A stretch of 43,930 nt of DNA, from positions 1 to 43,930 of IMG/VR virus record IMGVR_UViG_3300022697_000068, one strand, 5' to 3'. The notes beneath the pieces were generated by a model. It searched no databases. It was not told the origin of the DNA and saw only the letters and a list, made by a program, of their open reading frames with translations. How positions within the stretch are numbered: position 1 is the first letter of the stretch; each line of letters begins with the position of its first letter. This stretch comes from a virus. Taxonomy: Duplodnaviria > Caudoviricetes. Both the position numbers and the translations under genes were made by a program. Below are positions 1,522-39,002 of the stretch, piece after piece.

Positions 1522-1752
1522 GTGAAAGATTTAATAATTACAATTGTAAAGGCATTGGTTGATGAGCCTGAAAAAGTAGGGGTCAATGAGATTAAGGGCG
1601 AGAAAGTGCTTGTCTATGAAATAAGCGTTGCCGATGGTGAAGTTGGAAAGATAATCGGAAAGCAGGGGATAACCGCCAGAGCAATGAGGACCATTGTCAA
1701 TGCCACGGCGACCAAGCTGGGGAAACATGCCGTGCTTGAAATCATGGAGTAG
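1522..1752 (+). CDS. khpA: KH-domain RNA-binding protein KhpA (UPF0109/YlqC)
   Basis: IVKALVDEPEKV...GKIIGKQGITARAMRTIV...LEI with intact GxxG loop; 76 aa, typical length; GTG start. Confidence 0.9.
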   Translation: MKDLIITIVKALVDEPEKVGVNEIKGEKVLVYEISVADGEVGKIIGKQGITARAMRTIVNATATKLGKHAVLEIME

Positions 1753-5567: not shown

Positions 5568-5782
5568 ATGAGTCACTGCCAGGCGCAAGCGATGCATGAA
5601 AGTGTAAGGGCGAGTAAAGGCGGGGGGGCAAATGTTTAGCGTGTCGTGTTGAGTTGTTCGGGGACGCTCAAATCAGGCTGGCAACCAGAAAATGTCCATC
5701 ATGCGGTGAAATGCGGAAGAGTTGGGAAACGGTCAGTGGGTTAATTGCCCGGAATGCGGGTAAAATAATTTCTAGAAATTAA
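5568..5782 (+). pseudogene. broken Zn-ribbon gene
   Basis: KCLAC..KCPSCG lies out of frame with upstream ATG 5568 across the G7 run at 5622-5628. Confidence 0.4.
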
Positions 5783-6483: not shown

Positions 6484-7233
6484 ATGAAAAACGAAGATGA
6501 TGCTCAGTTGGACCGGATCGAAATGGTTTATATCAACCGGGATAAGCTCTATAAATTGCCGGGGAACCCAAGGCGGGTTGATGGCTCTGGAAAGGTGGAG
6601 CGGTTGAAGGCGCAAATACTCGCCCACGGGTTCCAAGTTCCTTTGCAGGTATACCAAGAGGGGAGCGGATACACGGTTCTTTGCGGGAACCATCGGCTCG
6701 AAGCCGGGGGAAGTATTGGCATGAAGGAATTCCCGTGCATTGTCTATTCTGGAACCAAGCAGGATGCGTTGGCTCGTGCGATATCCGATAATAAGACAAA
6801 TGAGTGGACCGAATGGGATATACCGAATCTAGGGGATATGATGACCGGGCTGGATGATGGTTCATTCGATATGTTCAAGACCGGATTCAGCCAGCAAGAA
6901 TTGGCGGCGTTATTCGGTGGCCCCAGTGAAGACCCGTTTGCAGGTGGAGGCCAAAGCAAGGAGGGGGAGGTTAAATTTTCAGAGGTTTTGGGGGAGGCCA
7001 ACAACTATGTGGTCCTGCTTTTCAGGAATGAGGTTGATTGGCTTGCGGCTCGTACTCATTTCAGGATCGACCGGGCGGCTGGATATAGGGCAAACGGGGA
7101 ACAGTGGTCAATCGGAGTTGGGCGGGTTCTGGATGGCGCACAGTATCTGAAAGAGCAGAATTCGGAATTGGACGGGCATCACACAGAAAGGGCCGTACCC
7201 GATCCTTTCAGAGAGTCCGGGGACCAAGAATGA
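6484..7233 (+). CDS. ParB/Srx N-terminal domain protein
   Basis: PGNPRR..I..HGFQVPLQV..VLCGNHRLEA..ISDNK..EWD. Confidence 0.85.
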   Translation: MKNEDDAQLDRIEMVYINRDKLYKLPGNPRRVDGSGKVERLKAQILAHGFQVPLQVYQEGSGYTVLCGNHRLEAGGSIGMKEFPCIVYSGTKQDALARAISDNKTNEWTEWDIPNLGDMMTGLDDGSFDMFKTGFSQQELAALFGGPSEDPFAGGGQSKEGEVKFSEVLGEANNYVVLLFRNEVDWLAARTHFRIDRAAGYRANGEQWSIGVGRVLDGAQYLKEQNSELDGHHTERAVPDPFRESGDQE

Positions 7234-8000
7234 ATTTCGAGATTTATAGCCCGTCTTACAAACGCCCAGATATTTGCACAAGCCATAAATATTTTCCAGA
7301 CCTAACCTACGTTGTGGATGAGTCGGAGTACAAGGCTTATAAAAATGTGCATGATAAGATCATCGCCTTACCGTCAGGCGTTCAAGGGAACATTTCGCGG
7401 GTTCGCAATTGGATCATGGACCACGTTCCGGTTGTCCTAATTATAGATGACGATTACTCCGACATTGGGCGTTGGACCATGCGGGAAGGTCCGGGGGAAT
7501 ATGGAGTCTATGGGAGGAAGTTGACCCCAAATCAGGCAATGGAATTTGTCGAAATGGGTTTTGAATTGGCGGTCGAATTTGATGTAAAAATGTGGGGGAT
7601 CAATCTTGCATTCGATAAGGGAACCTATCGAGAGTACACACCGTTTTCATTATCTAGCATGATATTGGGTCCGCTTCATGGTCACATCAATAGCGACATC
7701 CGGTATGATGAGAAATTGCCGTTAAAGGAAGATTATGATTTTTCAATTCAGGCGTTAAATGAATACCGAAAGATTCTGCGGCTGAATATGTATTATTATA
7801 AATGCGATCAACACGGAAAGCCGGGAGGTTGCGCGGCATACCGGACAATCAATCGAGAAATGCAACAAAATATATTACTCAGGAAAAAGTGGGGAGCGAA
7901 ATTAATTAAATTCGATACCGGCGCATCAAAGACCAATAGAAAAAATGAAATTGGGTTTGATATCAATCCAATCGCAACCGTACCAATCAAGGGAATATGA
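7230..8000 (+). CDS. GT-A glycosyltransferase, TAGT/GREB1-like (phage DNA-modification associated)
   Basis: IYSPSYKRP..YVV..EY..GNISRVRNWI..IIDDD..LKEDYD..LRLN..PGGC; ATG 7230 overlaps the ParB TGA. Confidence 0.75.
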   Translation: MNFEIYSPSYKRPDICTSHKYFPDLTYVVDESEYKAYKNVHDKIIALPSGVQGNISRVRNWIMDHVPVVLIIDDDYSDIGRWTMREGPGEYGVYGRKLTPNQAMEFVEMGFELAVEFDVKMWGINLAFDKGTYREYTPFSLSSMILGPLHGHINSDIRYDEKLPLKEDYDFSIQALNEYRKILRLNMYYYKCDQHGKPGGCAAYRTINREMQQNILLRKKWGAKLIKFDTGASKTNRKNEIGFDINPIATVPIKGI

Positions 8001-8431: not shown

Positions 8432-8625
8432 ATAATTTGCAGGGGAACATCATGGAGGTCAAGAGGATCGCAATGTCCGGGTTGAATGTCGAAATAGTCA
8501 GGGACGGGGAAAAGTTTGAAATGGAACTCATGGCAAGGGATTATAACACAGTCAAGATGCCTATTTCAATCGAGGTAGCAAAGTCTTTTAAATTCATGAT
8601 GGAGAGTGAACGCAATGACGCATAA
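8428..8625 (+). CDS. hypothetical protein
   Basis: ATGA overlap with terS stop; GGAG RBS. Confidence 0.6.
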   Translation: MNNLQGNIMEVKRIAMSGLNVEIVRDGEKFEMELMARDYNTVKMPISIEVAKSFKFMMESERNDA

Positions 8626-9004
8626 GAGGATTTACGTTGTTACAGATACGTTTCAAAGATACCAAGTATTTATCGAGAAAAATTCATTAGACACAGAAAC
8701 GTGGAAATTTTGCAGTATGCCGGAGCCGTTGTTTGGCAGAGAGAATTATGATCTGATTTTCATCGAGGGTTATTTGAATATCGACCCAAAGAATTTACAG
8801 AGAATAAAAGACCAATATGCGACAGGCGGAAAAAGATGTTTCCCGGCGGTAAGGGGTCAAAATTTGACTGGCCTATCAAATACATTCGACATTTTAATTG
8901 TAGAATTTTCACGTCACCCGGATGTCAATAAGCAATTGGCGGATCAGGGAAGGCGCGAAATACGAAAGGCATTTGAGACGCTCGAAAGGAGTTACCATCC
9001 ATGA
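8606..9004 (+). CDS. hypothetical protein
   Basis: 132-aa ORF in tight operon; start may be ATG 8615. Confidence 0.6.
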   Translation: MNAMTHKRIYVVTDTFQRYQVFIEKNSLDTETWKFCSMPEPLFGRENYDLIFIEGYLNIDPKNLQRIKDQYATGGKRCFPAVRGQNLTGLSNTFDILIVEFSRHPDVNKQLADQGRREIRKAFETLERSYHP

Positions 9005-12651: not shown

Positions 12652-13729
12652 ATTACCAAGAGACACAACCGGGAAAATGGTCCGGCATATTTTCGATCTT
12701 CGCCGGGTGGAGAACGGGTTGTTTTTTGATATATCTACCCCGTTGAATTTTGCGGAAAAAGAAGTCACCAAAGCATTAATCCAAAGTGATTTGGGTGACG
12801 CTATCCGATTTGACACGAAACAGAGGCGGTTGAATAAATTAATGCTGGAAGCAGATGAGGTGATTGCCGATTCTATATTGGCGATGGATAAGGATTTGAG
12901 AAAAAGTTTAAGGGAATTGGCTATCATGGAATCAGATTTTGCCGGGACGGTGTTGCAGGAAGCCACAGGGAGCAATACGGGGCTAAAAGTCCAGTTCGGG
13001 GTTGGGGTATTGGATGCCGGTTTGCTCAAGCGGATAATCAGGGAGGAGCCTTTTAATGGTATCCAATTAGCAAGCTGGTGGAAAAGGCAAAGATTTGCAA
13101 CGCGAGCGGAATTCAGAAAGCGGTTGAGTCTTGGGCTTGTAAACGGGGATTCAACATCGGAATTGGTTCGGGGGATCAGGGGGACACGGGCCACAGGGTT
13201 TAAAGATGGAATGTTTAAAAGGCAGGGTCTTTCCGGCCATCAAATCAGGGCTATTATTCGGACTTCTGTCAATCAGGTTTCAAACAGGTCTGCCGAGGAA
13301 ACATACCGAGCTAATTCGGATATAACAACGACTTACGAGTATGTGGCTACGCTGGATGATCGAACAACGCCTATTTGTCGAAGCCTTGACGGTCTGATAT
13401 TCAGGTATGATGACGCGGCCGGGTCAAGACCTCCACAGCACGCGGGTTGTCGTTCGGTTATCAGGCCCATAGTGGGTTTCAAGGAATTAGGATTGAAAAA
13501 GCCGGTTGATGGCACAAGGGTGGCGCGTGGCGATACTCCTGGGCCGGTAAAAAGTTCTATTAAATATTCGGATTGGCTTAGAACCCAAGGGGTTCCAACT
13601 CAAAACAGGATATTGGGACCGGAAAGAGCAATGCTTTTCAGGCGAGGAAAAGTGACATTAAATGAAATGCTAAGAAGGGATGGAAGACTTTTAACATTGC
13701 CTGATTTGAGAAAAAGAATAAACAATTAA
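12644..13729 (+). CDS. minor head protein, MuF/SPP1 gp7 family
   Basis: YVATLDDRTTPICRSLDG..PPQHAGCRS..YSDWLRTQ..ILGPERA.LFR.G. Confidence 0.92.
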   Translation: MAKLPRDTTGKMVRHIFDLRRVENGLFFDISTPLNFAEKEVTKALIQSDLGDAIRFDTKQRRLNKLMLEADEVIADSILAMDKDLRKSLRELAIMESDFAGTVLQEATGSNTGLKVQFGVGVLDAGLLKRIIREEPFNGIQLASWWKRQRFATRAEFRKRLSLGLVNGDSTSELVRGIRGTRATGFKDGMFKRQGLSGHQIRAIIRTSVNQVSNRSAEETYRANSDITTTYEYVATLDDRTTPICRSLDGLIFRYDDAAGSRPPQHAGCRSVIRPIVGFKELGLKKPVDGTRVARGDTPGPVKSSIKYSDWLRTQGVPTQNRILGPERAMLFRRGKVTLNEMLRRDGRLLTLPDLRKRINN

Positions 13730-13761
13730 AATATTTTCTGCTATGATTTTGAATCTTGGAG

Positions 13762-13790
13762 TTGACGAACCGGGAATTTATATATAAACT
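13762..13790 (+). promoter_or_regulatory. putative sigma70-type promoter for scaffold/capsid genes
   Basis: TTGACG-17 nt-TAAACT in an AT-rich intergenic gap, followed by GGAGG RBS. Confidence 0.45.
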
Positions 13791-13819: not shown

Positions 13820-14629
13820 ATGAGTTTTTCTAAATTAGAAAATTTGGTAAAATTTGAAGACGACGGGGGAGACAAGGGCGGCGGAACCGGGGGCGGAACG
13901 TTCAACCAGGGTCAGGTTAATGAGGCGGTTGAAGCGGCTGTAAAAAAAGCGGTTGGTGACGTGCAAAACCTCAAGGCCAATAACCAGAATTTGAAAAACG
14001 AAAAGCAAGCGGCCCTTGAAAGGGTTAAGAAATTTGACGGCGTTAGTGATGGCGACCTTACGGAACTCAGCAAGTTCAAGGAGGAAAAGGCCGAACTCGA
14101 AAAAAAGAAAGCGTTGGATGCCGGTAAATGGAAAGACCTTGAAGTGCAGTTGATCGAGAAGCACGATGTAACCATGAAGGAAAAAGACAGTCGCATTAAT
14201 TTCCTCATGACCGAAGTAACCAAACATGTCACTGATTCTCAGCTTACGAAGTCATTGGCAAAGGTAGGCGGTCAACCACACTTGATACTCCACGCATTGA
14301 AGGAGCATGTTAAATTAGTTGAAAATGATAAGGGGATTCATGCGGTCGTAATTGATCCTTTGACCGGAAATGAAAGAATTGCCGATGATAAGGGGACCAA
14401 GATGACTATGGATCAACTTGTCGAAGATTTCAAAAGCAAGGATGAGTGGGCCGGTGCATTTGCTGGTTCGGGTCAAAGCGGTATGGACACGAAAAACAAT
14501 AATACGCGAAAGGGGAACCCCACAGGAGCGCAGATGACACAAACGCAATTTTCTAATCTGGATTTAAAGCAAATGGAATTTGCGAGAGAAAGACGTGCAA
14601 AGGGAGAACTTACAATAGTTGCAGGTTGA
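13820..14629 (+). CDS. capsid scaffolding protein
   Basis: Charged coiled coil, G-rich N-terminus, FAGSGQSG motif, directly before the capsid gene. Confidence 0.8.
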   Translation: MSFSKLENLVKFEDDGGDKGGGTGGGTFNQGQVNEAVEAAVKKAVGDVQNLKANNQNLKNEKQAALERVKKFDGVSDGDLTELSKFKEEKAELEKKKALDAGKWKDLEVQLIEKHDVTMKEKDSRINFLMTEVTKHVTDSQLTKSLAKVGGQPHLILHALKEHVKLVENDKGIHAVVIDPLTGNERIADDKGTKMTMDQLVEDFKSKDEWAGAFAGSGQSGMDTKNNNTRKGNPTGAQMTQTQFSNLDLKQMEFARERRAKGELTIVAG

Positions 14630-14639
14630 TTTATATGCA

Positions 14640-14759
14640 GCCCTCGGTTGGACCGAGGGCGACAAAGTTTAGATTATTAAACGGTTGGACCGTTGCCCAT
14701 TCGGGGTTGGACTCCAATGGATTATTTTTCAATAATTTTTCATCGGAGTTAGACCAATG
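14640..14759 (+). promoter_or_regulatory. structured leader: three GT-TGG-AC hairpins plus anti-RBS
   Basis: GCCCTCGGT-TGG-ACCGAGGGC; AACGGT-TGG-ACCGTT; CCATTcGGGGT-TGG-ACTCCAATGG; GACTCCAATG can alternatively pair with CATCGGAGTT. Confidence 0.75.
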
Positions 14760-15902
14760 GCTAACGATTTCAGCAATTTGTTTCAGAACATTTTAAAATT
14801 CGGAGCCTTGGCTTTGCGTGAAAATTCAATCATGCCAAGGTTGGTTTCTCAGGACTTCGGACCTGAGGAAGCCCAAAAAGGTCAGGTTATTAACATTTCC
14901 ATACCACGACCCAAAACGACAGAGAATGTCGCCCCCGGAGCGGCGCAAACCGGGAATGACCGTCAACACGATTTGCATCCTATCACTATGGACCAGTGGA
15001 AGCAGTCCAGCTTCAACATCACCGACAAAGAAGAGAGGGAAGTTTTCGAGCAAGGAATTTTGCCTGCCGATTCATCCGAGGCTATCAAGGCGTTGATGAA
15101 CGAAGTTGATAATTACATCATCAACAAAATGCTGTTGAAGATGCCTTACACGGTTGGGTCTGCGGCTCCCGTGGCAGTAGCCGACATCGTGGATGCTCGA
15201 ACCGCAATGGTTAAGCAGTTGGCTCCGGTATCTGGATTGAATTACATTATGAATCCAGACACCGAAGGCGCAATGCTGAAATTGGGGACATTCCACCAAG
15301 CGGACCAGAGCGGGAACCTTGCAGGATTGCAGGAAGGAAACCTTGGGCGTAAATTCGGATTCCAGATGTTCATGGATCAGAATTTGACCGGGAAAACTCT
15401 GGTCTCCGGCACGAAGGCGGGGACCATTCTGACCAATGGCGCAATTGTCGTTGGGCAGACCGCTATTCCGATTGACGGCGGAACGGTTTCAACTACGTTG
15501 GTTCCGGGCGACACTGTGAAGTTCGCAGGCGACCCAAATACCTACATCGTGACCAATTCGGTTGCGAGTGTTCTTGCTGGGACCATGAACATCTTTCCGC
15601 CTGCGAAAGTTGCGATTGGGGATGGAGCGGTTGTAACACCTATTTATACTGCCTCGCAGATCGTTACCTATCATTCCATCGCTTCACATCCAACGGCGTT
15701 CGGTTTCGTCAACCGTCCAATGCGGGTTGCCCGTGATGGACTCGGCGTTGTGAGCACGGCTATTGTTGACCCGATTACCGGCCTTAGTTTGAGGCTGGAA
15801 GTCACCCGGAACAACAAGCAGGATAATTGGTCGTGGGATATTCTTTATGGAGGCGATGTAGTACGCCCTGAATTTGGAGCGTTCAACACCGCAATAGTTT
15901 AA
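14757..15902 (+). CDS. major capsid protein (P22 coat/gp5-like, HK97 fold)
   Basis: ALRENSIMPRLV..KGQVINI..GNLGRKFGFQMFMDQN..HPTAFGFV.RP..GLSLRL..WDILYG..VRPE. Confidence 0.92.
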   Translation: MANDFSNLFQNILKFGALALRENSIMPRLVSQDFGPEEAQKGQVINISIPRPKTTENVAPGAAQTGNDRQHDLHPITMDQWKQSSFNITDKEEREVFEQGILPADSSEAIKALMNEVDNYIINKMLLKMPYTVGSAAPVAVADIVDARTAMVKQLAPVSGLNYIMNPDTEGAMLKLGTFHQADQSGNLAGLQEGNLGRKFGFQMFMDQNLTGKTLVSGTKAGTILTNGAIVVGQTAIPIDGGTVSTTLVPGDTVKFAGDPNTYIVTNSVASVLAGTMNIFPPAKVAIGDGAVVTPIYTASQIVTYHSIASHPTAFGFVNRPMRVARDGLGVVSTAIVDPITGLSLRLEVTRNNKQDNWSWDILYGGDVVRPEFGAFNTAIV

Positions 15903-15915
15903 GTTTTTCTGGGTT

Positions 15916-15939
15916 GGGGGCTTCGGCCCCCTTTCTTTT
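15916..15939 (+). terminator. intrinsic terminator after capsid gene
   Basis: GGGGGC-TTCG-GCCCCC followed by TTTCTTTT. Confidence 0.9.
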
Positions 15940-24796: not shown

Positions 24797-24877
24797 GCTG
24801 GTTGGACCGGCGAGCGGTGGGGTTGGACTTCACCGAAACAATTTAATTTAGTTTCGATAGGAGTTCAAAAAAAAATG
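24797..24877 (+). promoter_or_regulatory. structured leader: two GT-TGG-AC hairpins plus anti-RBS
   Basis: GCTGGT-TGG-ACCGGC; CGGTGGGGT-TGG-ACTTCACCG; alternative pairing GACTTC/GGAGTT with CGAAAC/GTTTCG. Confidence 0.75.
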
Positions 24878-26347
24878 AGTAATACAAATAGAGTCGCCAT
24901 TGGGATCATAAAGGAAGTAACGAAAGGAGTTACCCCTCCCGCTCCCGCATTTCAAGCCTTGAGAATCACGGGAACACCAAACCTCGCCAATACCCCGCAG
25001 GTTGTAGTATCAAACGAATTGGCCCCAGACAGGCAGATTTCAGACCGTCCATTGGTCGGACAGCAGGCGGGCGGTGATATCGGTTTCGAGGTTTCGCCAG
25101 ATGCTCTTGACGACCTTTGGGAAGGCGGGTTGTGGTCGGATTGGATAAATAAACCAGATAAATTGAATGTGACCGCCGATTCAAGTATCACAGATGTCGG
25201 AACCGTTGCGGACACCTATGCGGTTGACGCTGGCGGCGCATCATTTGTAGCCGGTCATCTTGTTAGGGCATCTGGGTTTGTTGATGCGCCAAACAACCAA
25301 AGATTCCGGGTTGTAAGTTCAACTGCAATAACGATTGTCGGCGGAGCCTTGGGTCTCACTATAAACTCGGCTCCGCAGGCGGGAGCAAGGTTGCAGGTTG
25401 TGGGGTTTGAGGGCGCGGCGGATGATCTTGATTTAACCACCGCGGGCGGAAATAAAATGACATCAACGCTGTTAGATTTTACCACGCTAGGCCTTGTGGT
25501 CGGTGAATGGATCAAGATCGGCGGCGGGGTTGCAATCAATCAATTTGCAATACCTGGGAATAACGGATGGTATAGAATTTCATCCATTGCTACAAGTGCG
25601 CTCGGATTTGATATTGTTCCGACCGGATTTGCAATAGAGGCTTCGGTTGGATCATTGCAGGTACAGTGCTGGATCGGCGATTATATCCGAAATGGGGTGG
25701 TAGAGCATACCTTTGCGATTGAGCGGCAGTTTCAGGATCATTCGCCAGTCACCTATGAATATTTCAATCAGCAGACGATTGGGAATCTGAATCTAACAGG
25801 CGGGGCGCAGGCTATTTTGACTGGCGTTGCCACCTTCCTTGGAACTAAGTCGAATATTCAGGATTCAGGGAGATTTTCAGGGGCGACAGATATTGCCGCA
25901 CCCACGAATGATGTTATGAACACATCGAATCACGTTACCAAAATCGGGGAAGGCGGGGTTGAAGTCACCGGACCCAATTTTGTTCTTGGTTTTGGTGTCG
26001 CAATCAATAACCAGTTGCGTGGCAACCCCGGTATTGGTTCGGTTGGGCTTGTTGATATTGGATCGGGTGAGGCGGATATCACCGGAACCCTTTCAACGTA
26101 TTTTGGCGACAAGACTCTTGTCGAGAAAGTTTTAAACAATACCAAAACCGATCTGCATATTGCATTGGAGAACGGAACCGACCTCAAGGCAATCATCATG
26201 GATTTGCCAAGGGTCAAATATACCCAAGGTGCGCCTGCCGTACCGGGTAAAAATAATGACGTTACCTTGCCGCTAGAATTTGGAGCGCAGAAGCATGAAA
26301 CGCTCGGTTATACGATGCACGTTCAAAGGCATCACGAAACAGTCTAG
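24875..26347 (+). CDS. major tail tube protein with two inserted domains
   Basis: EVTKGVTP..LRITG..SNEL..DRQ..GGDIGFE..FAIERQF..ITGTLSTYF..LPRVKY. Confidence 0.88.
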   Translation: MSNTNRVAIGIIKEVTKGVTPPAPAFQALRITGTPNLANTPQVVVSNELAPDRQISDRPLVGQQAGGDIGFEVSPDALDDLWEGGLWSDWINKPDKLNVTADSSITDVGTVADTYAVDAGGASFVAGHLVRASGFVDAPNNQRFRVVSSTAITIVGGALGLTINSAPQAGARLQVVGFEGAADDLDLTTAGGNKMTSTLLDFTTLGLVVGEWIKIGGGVAINQFAIPGNNGWYRISSIATSALGFDIVPTGFAIEASVGSLQVQCWIGDYIRNGVVEHTFAIERQFQDHSPVTYEYFNQQTIGNLNLTGGAQAILTGVATFLGTKSNIQDSGRFSGATDIAAPTNDVMNTSNHVTKIGEGGVEVTGPNFVLGFGVAINNQLRGNPGIGSVGLVDIGSGEADITGTLSTYFGDKTLVEKVLNNTKTDLHIALENGTDLKAIIMDLPRVKYTQGAPAVPGKNNDVTLPLEFGAQKHETLGYTMHVQRHHETV

Positions 26348-26383: not shown

Positions 26384-26788
26384 ATGTCGGACATCTGGAA
26401 ACAATTTGAAACTGATAAGAAGATTGAGCAGGAGGGATTGTGGATCGACTTCGGTGATTATCAGTGGCTATGCAGAAGGGCAGGCGGTTCAAACGTAAAA
26501 TTTAAAGAAGCGTTTGCCCGTGAAACAAAAAAGTTGAAACAGGTTATGGAGTTGGAAGATTTGCCGGACGCAAAAGGCAGAGAAGTTTTGGCCAAGGTAT
26601 TTTCATCCCATGTAGTACTTGATTGGAAAGGGATGGTTGGTAGAAACGGGGATGAGTTGGAGTTCACAATGGAAAATGTCGCTATGATATTTACCGAAAT
26701 CCCAGATTTTTTCGACCGACTCAGGGAGCGGTTAATGGGCCACGGTTTGTTTCTGAAAGATATTGAAGAGGCAGAATTGGGAAAATAA
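26384..26788 (+). CDS. tail assembly chaperone (gpG-like)
   Basis: FETDKKIEQEGLW..RRAGGSN..VLDWKG..IPDFF; ends LGK on a slippery site. Confidence 0.85.
   Translation: MSDIWKQFETDKKIEQEGLWIDFGDYQWLCRRAGGSNVKFKEAFARETKKLKQVMELEDLPDAKGREVLAKVFSSHVVLDWKGMVGRNGDELEFTMENVAMIFTEIPDFFDRLRERLMGHGLFLKDIEEAELGK
26779..26785 (+). other. -1 programmed ribosomal frameshift site GGGAAAA
   Basis: X XXY YYZ heptamer just before the stop; -1 frame GGG AAA ATA ACC GCT TTC ATG is open into ORF 26797. Confidence 0.8.
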
Positions 26789-26796
26789 CCGCTTTC

Positions 26797-27147
26797 ATGG
26801 ATCATAGGTTGGGCATGGGCGAGCATTCGGATGACATCGCCCGTGCCGCCCGTGCAAGCGGCCAGCCTGTACCGCCCGGATGCGATCAACCGAGTATCAG
26901 GGCGGACCTTGTTTTTTTTGTAGAGGCTTACGATACCCTGTCAACTTGTAGAATTGGAGGGCATATACCTTGGACTGCGGTTCTGGAATATGCAAGGTGT
27001 TACGGGGTTTCATTAGACAACGGGTTTGATTTTTTATGGAAAGTCATTCATTCAATGGACCAAATGGAATTAAAGAATAAAAAAAATAAGGTGGATGCCG
27101 ATGAGCGATTTAAAAAGATTCGGGAAAAGGATCGACAAGCTCAGTAA
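26797..27147 (+). CDS. tail assembly chaperone C-terminal extension (gpT-like)
   Basis: AYDTLSTCR..IPWTAVLEYA..YG..I..MD; -1 frame relative to the upstream chaperone. Confidence 0.8.
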   Translation: MDHRLGMGEHSDDIARAARASGQPVPPGCDQPSIRADLVFFVEAYDTLSTCRIGGHIPWTAVLEYARCYGVSLDNGFDFLWKVIHSMDQMELKNKKNKVDADERFKKIREKDRQAQ

Positions 27148-38645: not shown

Positions 38646-39002
38646 ATGAAAGTTGAATTTGATACTTTTGATAAAAGGTCGAAGGCGGCAACCCTGCTTT
38701 ACCCGGACGAAAAAAATATAAATGCGCGTGTAAGAAAATTAGAGGCCGAAAATGGGTTGGAGGCGTTCACGATAAAAGAAATTTTATATCAGAGAAGAAA
38801 TCCAGGGCAGATTTCAAAACCTATAAAGCCTATGGAGAGAAAATGCCCACAATGTGATGGTAGGATGTTTGTTAAGGGCGTCTGCCCAAGTTGTGATGCG
38901 TTTGCCCAAGGGATGCGGACCCATTGGATTTGCTCAGGGTGCAACGCAGAACAATATTCAAAAAAGGACCAAGGGACATGGATGAAGGAATTATCGGGTT
39001 AA
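38646..39002 (+). CDS. triple-CxxC Zn-binding protein
   Basis: CPQC, CPSC, CSGC. Confidence 0.7.
   Translation: MKVEFDTFDKRSKAATLLYPDEKNINARVRKLEAENGLEAFTIKEILYQRRNPGQISKPIKPMERKCPQCDGRMFVKGVCPSCDAFAQGMRTHWICSGCNAEQYSKKDQGTWMKELSG

Follow-up and report, generated by a model that had tools for sequence, protein, structure and literature searches.

The window analysed here, a contig of 43,930 bases that is estimated to be 74% complete, belongs to a long-tailed phage, and its structural genes lie in the order terminase, portal, scaffold, capsid, connectors, tail tube, tape measure and tail tip. The scaffold and capsid genes are separated by an intergenic leader of 127 nt that holds three hairpins, H1 to H3, and a second copy of this layout, overlooked by the first-pass annotation of this DNA, lies upstream of the tail tube gene, where two hairpins with the same apex, T1 and T2, are found at 24797–24835 (Table 1). 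The scanned region holds eight sigma-70-like matches, against 3.5 ± 1.8 in shuffles. The cluster of such matches upstream of the scaffold gene is likely, judging from the consensus, to be the start of a scaffold-capsid message, and its presence together with the terminator-like hairpin downstream of the capsid gene suggests that the two genes probably share one message.

Table 1. Features of the capsid and tail tube leaders and of their surroundings, in window positions.
Feature	Position	Strand	Description
KhpA-type KH-domain gene	1522..1752	+	PF13083, E 4e-20; full-length, GxxG loop
Scaffold promoter cluster (putative)	13691..13790	+	four sigma-70-like matches, 9/12 each, 5' of the scaffold gene; consensus matches only
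Head scaffolding protein gene	13820..14629	+	269 aa; phrog_206, E 2e-21
Hairpin H1	14640..14660	+	GCCCTCGGT/ACCGAGGGC, 9 bp, U-UGG-A triloop; present in ON and OFF folds
Hairpin H2	14680..14694	+	AACGGT/ACCGTT, 6 bp, apex as in H1 and H3; loop 22 nt 5' of the H3 loop
Hairpin H3	14697..14720	+	5 bp, bulged C, 5 bp, one G-U; its bases double as the 5' strand of the OFF helix
Sigma-70-like site TGGACT-17-AATAAT	14708..14736	+	9/12, overlaps H3; such a site in only 1/32 tandem leaders
OFF-helix 3' strand (predicted)	14734..14760	+	holds SD GGAG 14745–48 and capsid AUG 14757–59; from the MFE pair list
Major capsid protein gene, P22-coat-like	14757..15902	+	381 aa; phrog_283, E 4e-59; PF11651
Intrinsic-terminator-like hairpin	15916..15939	+	UUCG loop and U run, 3' of the capsid gene
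Tube-leader hairpin T1	24797..24811	+	6 bp, GGU-UGG-AC apex
Tube-leader hairpin T2	24815..24835	+	9 bp; loop 21 nt after the T1 loop; GGGGTTGGACT common to H3
Tube alternative helix	24823..24868	+	T2 loop and 3' arm pair with tube SD GGAG 24860–63
Tail tube protein gene	24875..26347	+	490 aa; PF18906, E 1e-40

Elsewhere in the window, a perfect 36-bp tandem repeat of 3.5 copies, interrupted by the contig start, occupies positions 1–125 and may represent iterons within a replication gene. A ParB-like gene adjoins a TET-associated glycosyltransferase gene upstream of the terminase (6484–8000), possibly as a DNA-modification module, and two tail-chaperone frames at 26384–27147 match the halves of phrog_8233 in the arrangement usual for a programmed frameshift. 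A 118-aa protein with four CxxC motifs, likely zinc-binding, is encoded with a good SD at 38646–39002, between two separate pieces of tail-tip protein that both match phrog_4271.

The positions given for the three capsid-leader hairpins in the first-pass annotation were all correct, and the apex GGT-TGG-AC is indeed common to them; its description of the stems as fully compensated does not strictly apply to H3, with its bulge and G-U pair. The fold of the capsid leader region is unusually stable (z = -4.68), and none of 200 shuffles folded as well. GTTGGAC occurs 12 times in the window, with a stem of at least 5 bp in five cases, all in the capsid and tube leaders. When any loop sequence was allowed, tandem triloops with the same apex again appeared only in these two leaders, as three pairs and one triple, whereas 100 dinucleotide shuffles gave a mean of 0.07 pairs, a maximum of one and no triple; the whole-genome scan of the window phage likewise returned tandem same-loop hairpins at the capsid and tube leaders only. 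All five apexes read GGTTGGAC. Across these five hairpins 96.7% of positions are paired, with eight two-sided changes in the outer pairs and an invariant apex; the evidence for covariation of the U-UGG-A form comes from these five copies of a single genome.

Distant homologues with 31–40% capsid identity have this layout too, though with different loops, mostly C-GGU-G. A detector for tandem Y-NGN-R triloops marked 32 of 115 capsid leaders, two of these being the window's, so that tandem hairpins are present in 30 of 113 capsid leaders of relatives, including that of Vibrio phage SSP002. The leader type can be described as at least two same-loop triloops with a central G, around 18–23 nt apart and around 30–90 nt before the start of a phrog_283 capsid gene; the loops are spaced 18–23 nt apart in 26 of the 32, and the window fits with loops 22 nt apart and 50 nt before the AUG. 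An unbiased count of triloops was also led by C-GGU-G, with 32 hairpins in 21 of 63 leaders. Compensatory stems, which the first-pass annotation had proposed to look for in homologues, were found: among 18 relatives 98.6% of cells are paired, with 52 two-sided changes and an invariant closing C-G, a pairing figure inflated by the choice of these relatives for a spacing of 18–21 and for stems. When C-GGN-G was picked by sequence alone, stems of at least 5 bp accompanied 50 of 144 occurrences in capsid leaders compared with 372 of 14574 elsewhere. An open frame of 53–56 aa across the window's leader (14626/14635–14796) was considered as a leader peptide and is taken as incidental; only two of 25 tandem leaders are open from the scaffold stop to the SD.

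Read on the sense strand, the exceptions to Watson-Crick pairing in the hairpin stems comprise 13 G-U, two A-C and three other combinations, and this excess of G-U over A-C points to an element that acts at the level of RNA. An operator or hairpin promoter acting as DNA, for which a loop spacing of around 21 nt would equal two helical turns, is extremely unlikely, as it would not account for the G-U bias, and the variation of the arms with compensation around a fixed spacer is the reverse of what a palindromic operator displays.

Where whole genomes were scanned, the capsid leader was the sole site of tandem same-loop hairpins in G002, G004 and SSP002, and G003 and G005 had none anywhere. A blind scan for the C-GGU-G pattern in 14 of 64 collection parts returned 120 loci with 109 distinct matches, mostly due to chance; the real ones were L429 (on the same contig as L162), L374, which has a five-hairpin leader, and L437, the leader of which precedes a capsid belonging to a different family, phrog_212. 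In a tree of 94 capsids, built by a quick search and with near-duplicates left out, hairpin leaders occur in about ten separate lineages and the window capsid sits on a long branch. The sequences, the exclusive placement, the compensatory stems, the sense-strand bias and this spread of the layout over about ten capsid lineages are all direct observations. As a separate matter, the capsid module recurs (L263–L295) in many species of the Alphaproteobacteria Sneathiella, Thalassobaculum and Nisaea, with C-GGGAU-G loop hairpins in many of its leaders, and may there be a domesticated element resembling a transfer agent.

Motif, capsid, scaffold and metagenome scans did not recover the exact U-UGG-A array outside the window phage. 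A scan for triple GTTGGAC in four of 64 collection parts gave 124 loci that were repeats, with no leader among them, and a scan for a double GGTTGGAC followed by an SD gave 41 loci, in no case with a pair of 4-bp stems. Neither the capsid nor KhpA, used as a single-protein query, confirmed a close relative; the metagenome scan yielded one distant locus, the scaffold-clade alignment six, and the nearest capsid homologues among the protein matches are 70–73% identical to the window's. The closing pair of the loop is U-A in the window compared with C-G in the other listed hairpins (52/56). Given this U-A closure and the long branch of the capsid, common descent of the window hairpins with the C-G-closed form is not demonstrated by the sequences.

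The first-pass annotation had proposed that the 3' arm of H3 can pair instead over the ribosome binding site. This pairing is present in the MFE fold, where nine of ten positions pair between GACTCCAATG (14710–19) and CATCGGAGTT (14741–50), with an A14716 x C14744 mismatch, but the helix is longer than was claimed: 14710–15 pairs with the SD strand 14745–50, 14705–08 with 14752–55, and 14697–701 with 14756–60, which includes the AUG. The inner ATTATT/AATAAT stem that was said to close this structure did not hold up, as only 3 bp of the 6-bp stem are in the MFE OFF fold; it appears in suboptimal folds and in the fold with the hairpins formed, and so is not specific to the OFF state. The OFF helix takes in the 5' arm of H3 together with its loop and, when a longer segment is folded, also H2; H1 is kept.

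Opening the capsid start region costs 13.2 kcal/mol, the second highest value among 51 window genes, and forcing the hairpins of the capsid leader reduces this to 6.5 kcal/mol. Prefix folding, which imitates a growing transcript, gives H1–H3 up to 14740 and refolding from 14750. In contrast to this strong switch, that of the tube leader is weak: its alternative helix and T2 are nearly isoenergetic (-22.3 against -22.1), and the opening cost of the tube start falls only from 5.2 to 4.2 on forcing the hairpins. In 28 leaders, counted after four near-duplicates were dropped, forced hairpins cut the opening cost by at least 3 kcal/mol in 13 leaders with their own start region, compared with 26 of 224 combinations with swapped start regions. 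The competing helix is thus genuine and specific to its own start region. Folding, homologue covariation and this swap control together support what the first-pass annotation had claimed more broadly, namely two mutually exclusive folds, an element of sense-strand RNA and the geometry of a switch. The gain is below 3 kcal/mol in the other 15 of the 28 leaders, including the window's tube leader (1.0) and that of SSP002 (0), and as about half of the homologous leaders are without the competing helix, the function must extend beyond freeing the ribosome binding site. What is conserved at the core is the pair of hairpins, to which the OFF helix is an addition.

A promoter motif at the hairpins, which the first-pass annotation had named as a point that could tell against an RNA element, was found in part: a sigma-70-like site with nine of 12 positions matching overlaps H3, but only one of the 32 tandem-hairpin leaders has such a site. 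This site bears on a model of the kind documented for the T4 genes e, soc, 49 and I-TevI (PMC3014915), in which the helix would keep long messages OFF and a late promoter within the leader would start a short message, near 14742 and just 5' of the SD, that is without the anti-SD strand. We consider this distinctly unlikely for the window phage, as no such site was found upstream of the tube gene, chance alone would give 3.5 matches in the scanned region, and H1, H2, T1 and the compensated stems would be left unexplained. The promoter scans covered sites of the sigma-70 type.

We lean, though only slightly, towards the reading that the tandem U-UGG-A hairpins of the capsid and tube leaders form a protein-gated translational ON switch. 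A phage-made protein would bind the tandem U-UGG-A triloops, probably as a dimer across two loops 21–22 nt apart, and lock the hairpins; that a protein does so, that it binds as a dimer and that it turns translation ON rather than OFF is what we infer. Once bound, the protein would keep the last hairpins shut, such that the predicted helix hiding the SD and AUG could not form, and translation would be switched ON for capsid and tail tube, the two virion proteins made in greatest amount. The hairpins would fold first during transcription, and the OFF helix is predicted to displace them once the SD emerges. Since about half of the relatives are without the competing helix, bound hairpins would likely raise output by a second route as well, through ribosome loading or message protection, with the OFF helix as an added tightening. 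Counting against the ON switch, the OFF fold of the capsid leader lies around 10 kcal/mol below the ON fold at equilibrium (ensemble energies of -57.0 free and -47.1 with H2 and H3 forced), a large energy for a small protein to supply if binding does not take place during transcription.

It is also conceivable, if rather unlikely, that there is no ligand, and that the hairpins protect the message or provide a short-lived ON fold, with output set by folding kinetics and by the coupling of transcription and translation. The order seen in prefix folding, with refolding only once the SD has been made, would fit such an account, as would the absence of a switch from about half of the leaders and the hairpin pair of SSP002 and MAR10, which lies just 3' of a terminator and promoter-like sequence and has no competing helix. 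Without a ligand, however, there would be no need for the same loop within a phage, for different loops between phages, or for a fixed spacing of 18–23 nt.

If a protein does lock the hairpins, the reader might be a known RNA-binding protein, either host CsrA on the GGA within UUGGA or a dimer of the phage's own KhpA. A GGA is present in each loop region and the window encodes a full-length KhpA with a GxxG loop, but this reading is nonetheless quite improbable. The consensus of CsrA/RsmA is ANGGA, and the first-pass annotation was right that it does not occur here, the five window loops all reading UUGGA and homologous loops mostly GGU. No CsrA gene was found in the 74%-complete contig or in any of five related records. 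With no phage copy and with GGU the commonest homologous loop, CsrA is disfavoured as the reader, despite a likeness to its targets, in that the hairpins stand in tandem and expose G-rich loops which a dimer could span; the window differs from these targets in lacking an A two bases before GGA and in its triloop geometry.

The KhpA gene is intact, lies outside its usual ribosomal context, and encodes a protein that shares as much as 68% identity with bacterial proteins, of which one is named from Nitrospinales. It may therefore be a captured host RNA-binding protein and hints at the host. A tblastn search with KhpA found no match in 80 related loci (up to 21 kb) or in the five other genomes compared. 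Nothing in the sequence ties this gene to the hairpins, and it is a candidate by virtue of its RNA-binding domain.

A further possibility is that the reader is an RNA, with a phage small RNA pairing to the shared GGGGUUGGACU stretch and opening the helix, as anti-antisense activation. This is very unlikely. H3 and T2 do have 11 nt in common, but this is explained by the need of one stretch to pair both as a hairpin arm and with the SD, and the stems of H1 and T1 would be superfluous for an RNA reader. The best joint duplex among 21,784 windows was -24.6 kcal/mol, and six shuffles gave -23.1 to -27.4; the search for an antisense RNA to the shared stretch thus found nothing above shuffles in 44 kb, with a quarter of the genome missing.

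Among the closest known systems is Com of phage Mu, which activates translation of mom mRNA, where the hairpin loop has the motif CC(N)2-3GAG (PMC6483171). A Com family (PF10122) match was not found in the 74%-complete contig at E 10, and none of the five relatives tested had one over the cut-off. A frame with Com-like cysteine spacing at 5618–5782 has no start codon and opens behind a stop codon, close to seven consecutive G; its similarity to the Com of L131 is weak (E 0.011), it has no Com family match, and it could be a remnant, a frameshift or an assembly slip. In L131 itself, a relative, a gene at 8473–8706 scores above the Pfam cut-off for Com and ends at the tube leader. A motif with the Com consensus is common to the capsid and tube leaders of L131, as is an anti-SD helix, and CC(N)2-3GAG, the motif given in PMC6483171, is present in the capsid leader. 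Com-type control of virion genes therefore probably exists in this capsid family.

The window resembles Mu Com/mom in that a small hairpin adjoins and competes with a structure that hides the start, a competition that in the window is predicted to be strong for the capsid and weak for the tube, in that a protein on the hairpin loop would expose the start signals, and in the true Com gene beside the tube leader of L131. It differs in its loop, which is U-UGG-A rather than CC(N)2-3GAG in all five apexes, in its two or three copies at fixed spacing, in its capsid and tube targets, and in the lack of a Com match. The best reading is that the window element would work like Mu Com/mom by analogy but is not a member of that system.

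Sharing of one motif between capsid and tube leaders was seen in the window phage and L131; in most relatives the capsid loop does not recur before the tube gene, and other conserved anti-SD structures are found there. Phages L149, L152, L156, L180 and L194, which have C-GGU-G hairpins in the capsid leader, have a distinct conserved tube leader with a CGTTCAAA-GCC motif and a CTCCC anti-SD helix. In L184 and L450–L454 the tube leader has a conserved motif followed by a covarying anti-SD helix; these leaders of the L184 relatives were rejected as triloop hairpins, being conserved anti-SD leaders that the detector does not score as triloops.

Other small proteins were also considered as the ligand. 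No small non-structural protein is common to the hairpin-bearing genomes. The small gene 3' of the capsid gene, which gave no usable Atlas match, was rejected, being present both with and without hairpins, as was a zinc ribbon of 38–71 aa, restricted to one C-GGU-G clade and found in two of five records, and the window's zinc-finger frames at 38646, 6046 and 4228, which match no family over the cut-off. The zinc-ribbon gene lies 2.6–3.8 kb after the capsid start and is confined to its clade (L163, L164, L167, L170, L171, L174, L176, L179 and L199).

In most relatives, the protein reader could be free scaffold. By means of an N-terminal domain of 30 residues, the scaffold would activate translation of the coat while repressing its own message, with the window lineage, having lost the domain, using another reader. 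We consider this rather unlikely. After eight near-duplicates were dropped, tandem hairpins were found in 20 of 42 loci with the domain and in one of 22 without it (p 5e-4), loci that are related rather than independent; with leaders restricted to at least 60 nt, the counts are 20 of 35 and one of 13. The pairing of domain and hairpins recurs in several sister contrasts on the quick capsid tree, scaffold leaders with a C-NGN-G hairpin are found in 10 of 21 hairpin-positive loci against four of 43 others, and the scaffold of SSP002 has the domain. Scaffold autoregulation in P22, which is said to be control of the scaffold gene itself, would offer a precedent by analogy.

Against a scaffold reader, the window has hairpins without the domain: an HMM of the domain found nothing in the window, the alignment shows that the window phage clade has replaced the domain, and there is no GTTGGAC hairpin upstream of the window's scaffold gene (13820). 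The relatedness of the loci and the adjacency of scaffold and leader mean that linkage could yield the association, many of the scaffold-leader hairpins are merely the SD itself in a C-GGA-G loop, and 22 of the 42 domain-bearing loci have no tandem triloops by the detector. The domain also shows a weak likeness to the fibritin foldon, a trimerisation module (E 0.67), and its AlphaFold model (pLDDT 84) gave no clear fold match, with which a known fold is still compatible. In likeness to P22, the window has the same capsid family and a candidate post-transcriptional control in the scaffold-coat region, and relatives show the domain association as well as hairpins at the scaffold SD; what is described for P22 is control of the scaffold gene and not activation of the coat, and the window is without the associated domain and also tags the tube.

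Two further comparisons concern the leaders themselves. T4 messages that begin upstream hold SD and AUG in a long helix until a late promoter unmasks them (PMC3014915), a likeness to the capsid leader here; the T4 leaders need no hairpins with fixed loops, and an internal promoter-like site is found in one of 32 leaders here. The Rfam motifs GP20-a and GP20-b and the candidate structured RNAs of phages in PMC10690425, of which there are 10,006, likewise include conserved leaders before head genes of tailed phages, untested in function, but no Rfam match lies at these leaders in the window or in 16 related loci. Rfam 15 gave no match at the gathering threshold in the window, with three chance snoRNA rows far below it, and in the 16 related loci only int-alpA, away from these leaders. 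No description of these leaders was found in the literature searched, and an unnamed supplementary candidate of PMC10690425 or PMC5737381 may overlap the C-GGU-G form. That the first-pass annotation did not recognise a described family agrees with both searches, and the hairpins and helix are a real cis-regulatory RNA without a catalogue entry. A recent preprint is said to describe Com-like zinc-finger enhancers of structural-gene translation in phages; it was absent from the literature searched, and the mechanism would be less novel should such a preprint exist.

A phage has to make capsid and tube subunits by the hundred, but around a dozen copies of most other components encoded in the same operons, and how these ratios are controlled is poorly known beyond a few models. 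The leader marks exactly the high-copy genes, and because it occurs across many lineages, culturable Vibrio phages among them, the question is open to experiment. Vibrio phage RZ01, a culturable relative, grows on V. natriegens. There is some chance, which we consider small but not negligible, that phages of this capsid family widely share an ON switch with a phage-specific loop code, in which the scaffold reads the triloops and matches coat to scaffold supply, and that the window lineage lost the domain and took up U-UGG-A and a new reader for capsid and tube. If this were true, pairs of reader and loop would be natural orthogonal activators of translation, and such loop-specific activators would be useful components for the synthetic control of genes. 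A scaffold reader would tie synthesis of the coat to the state of assembly.
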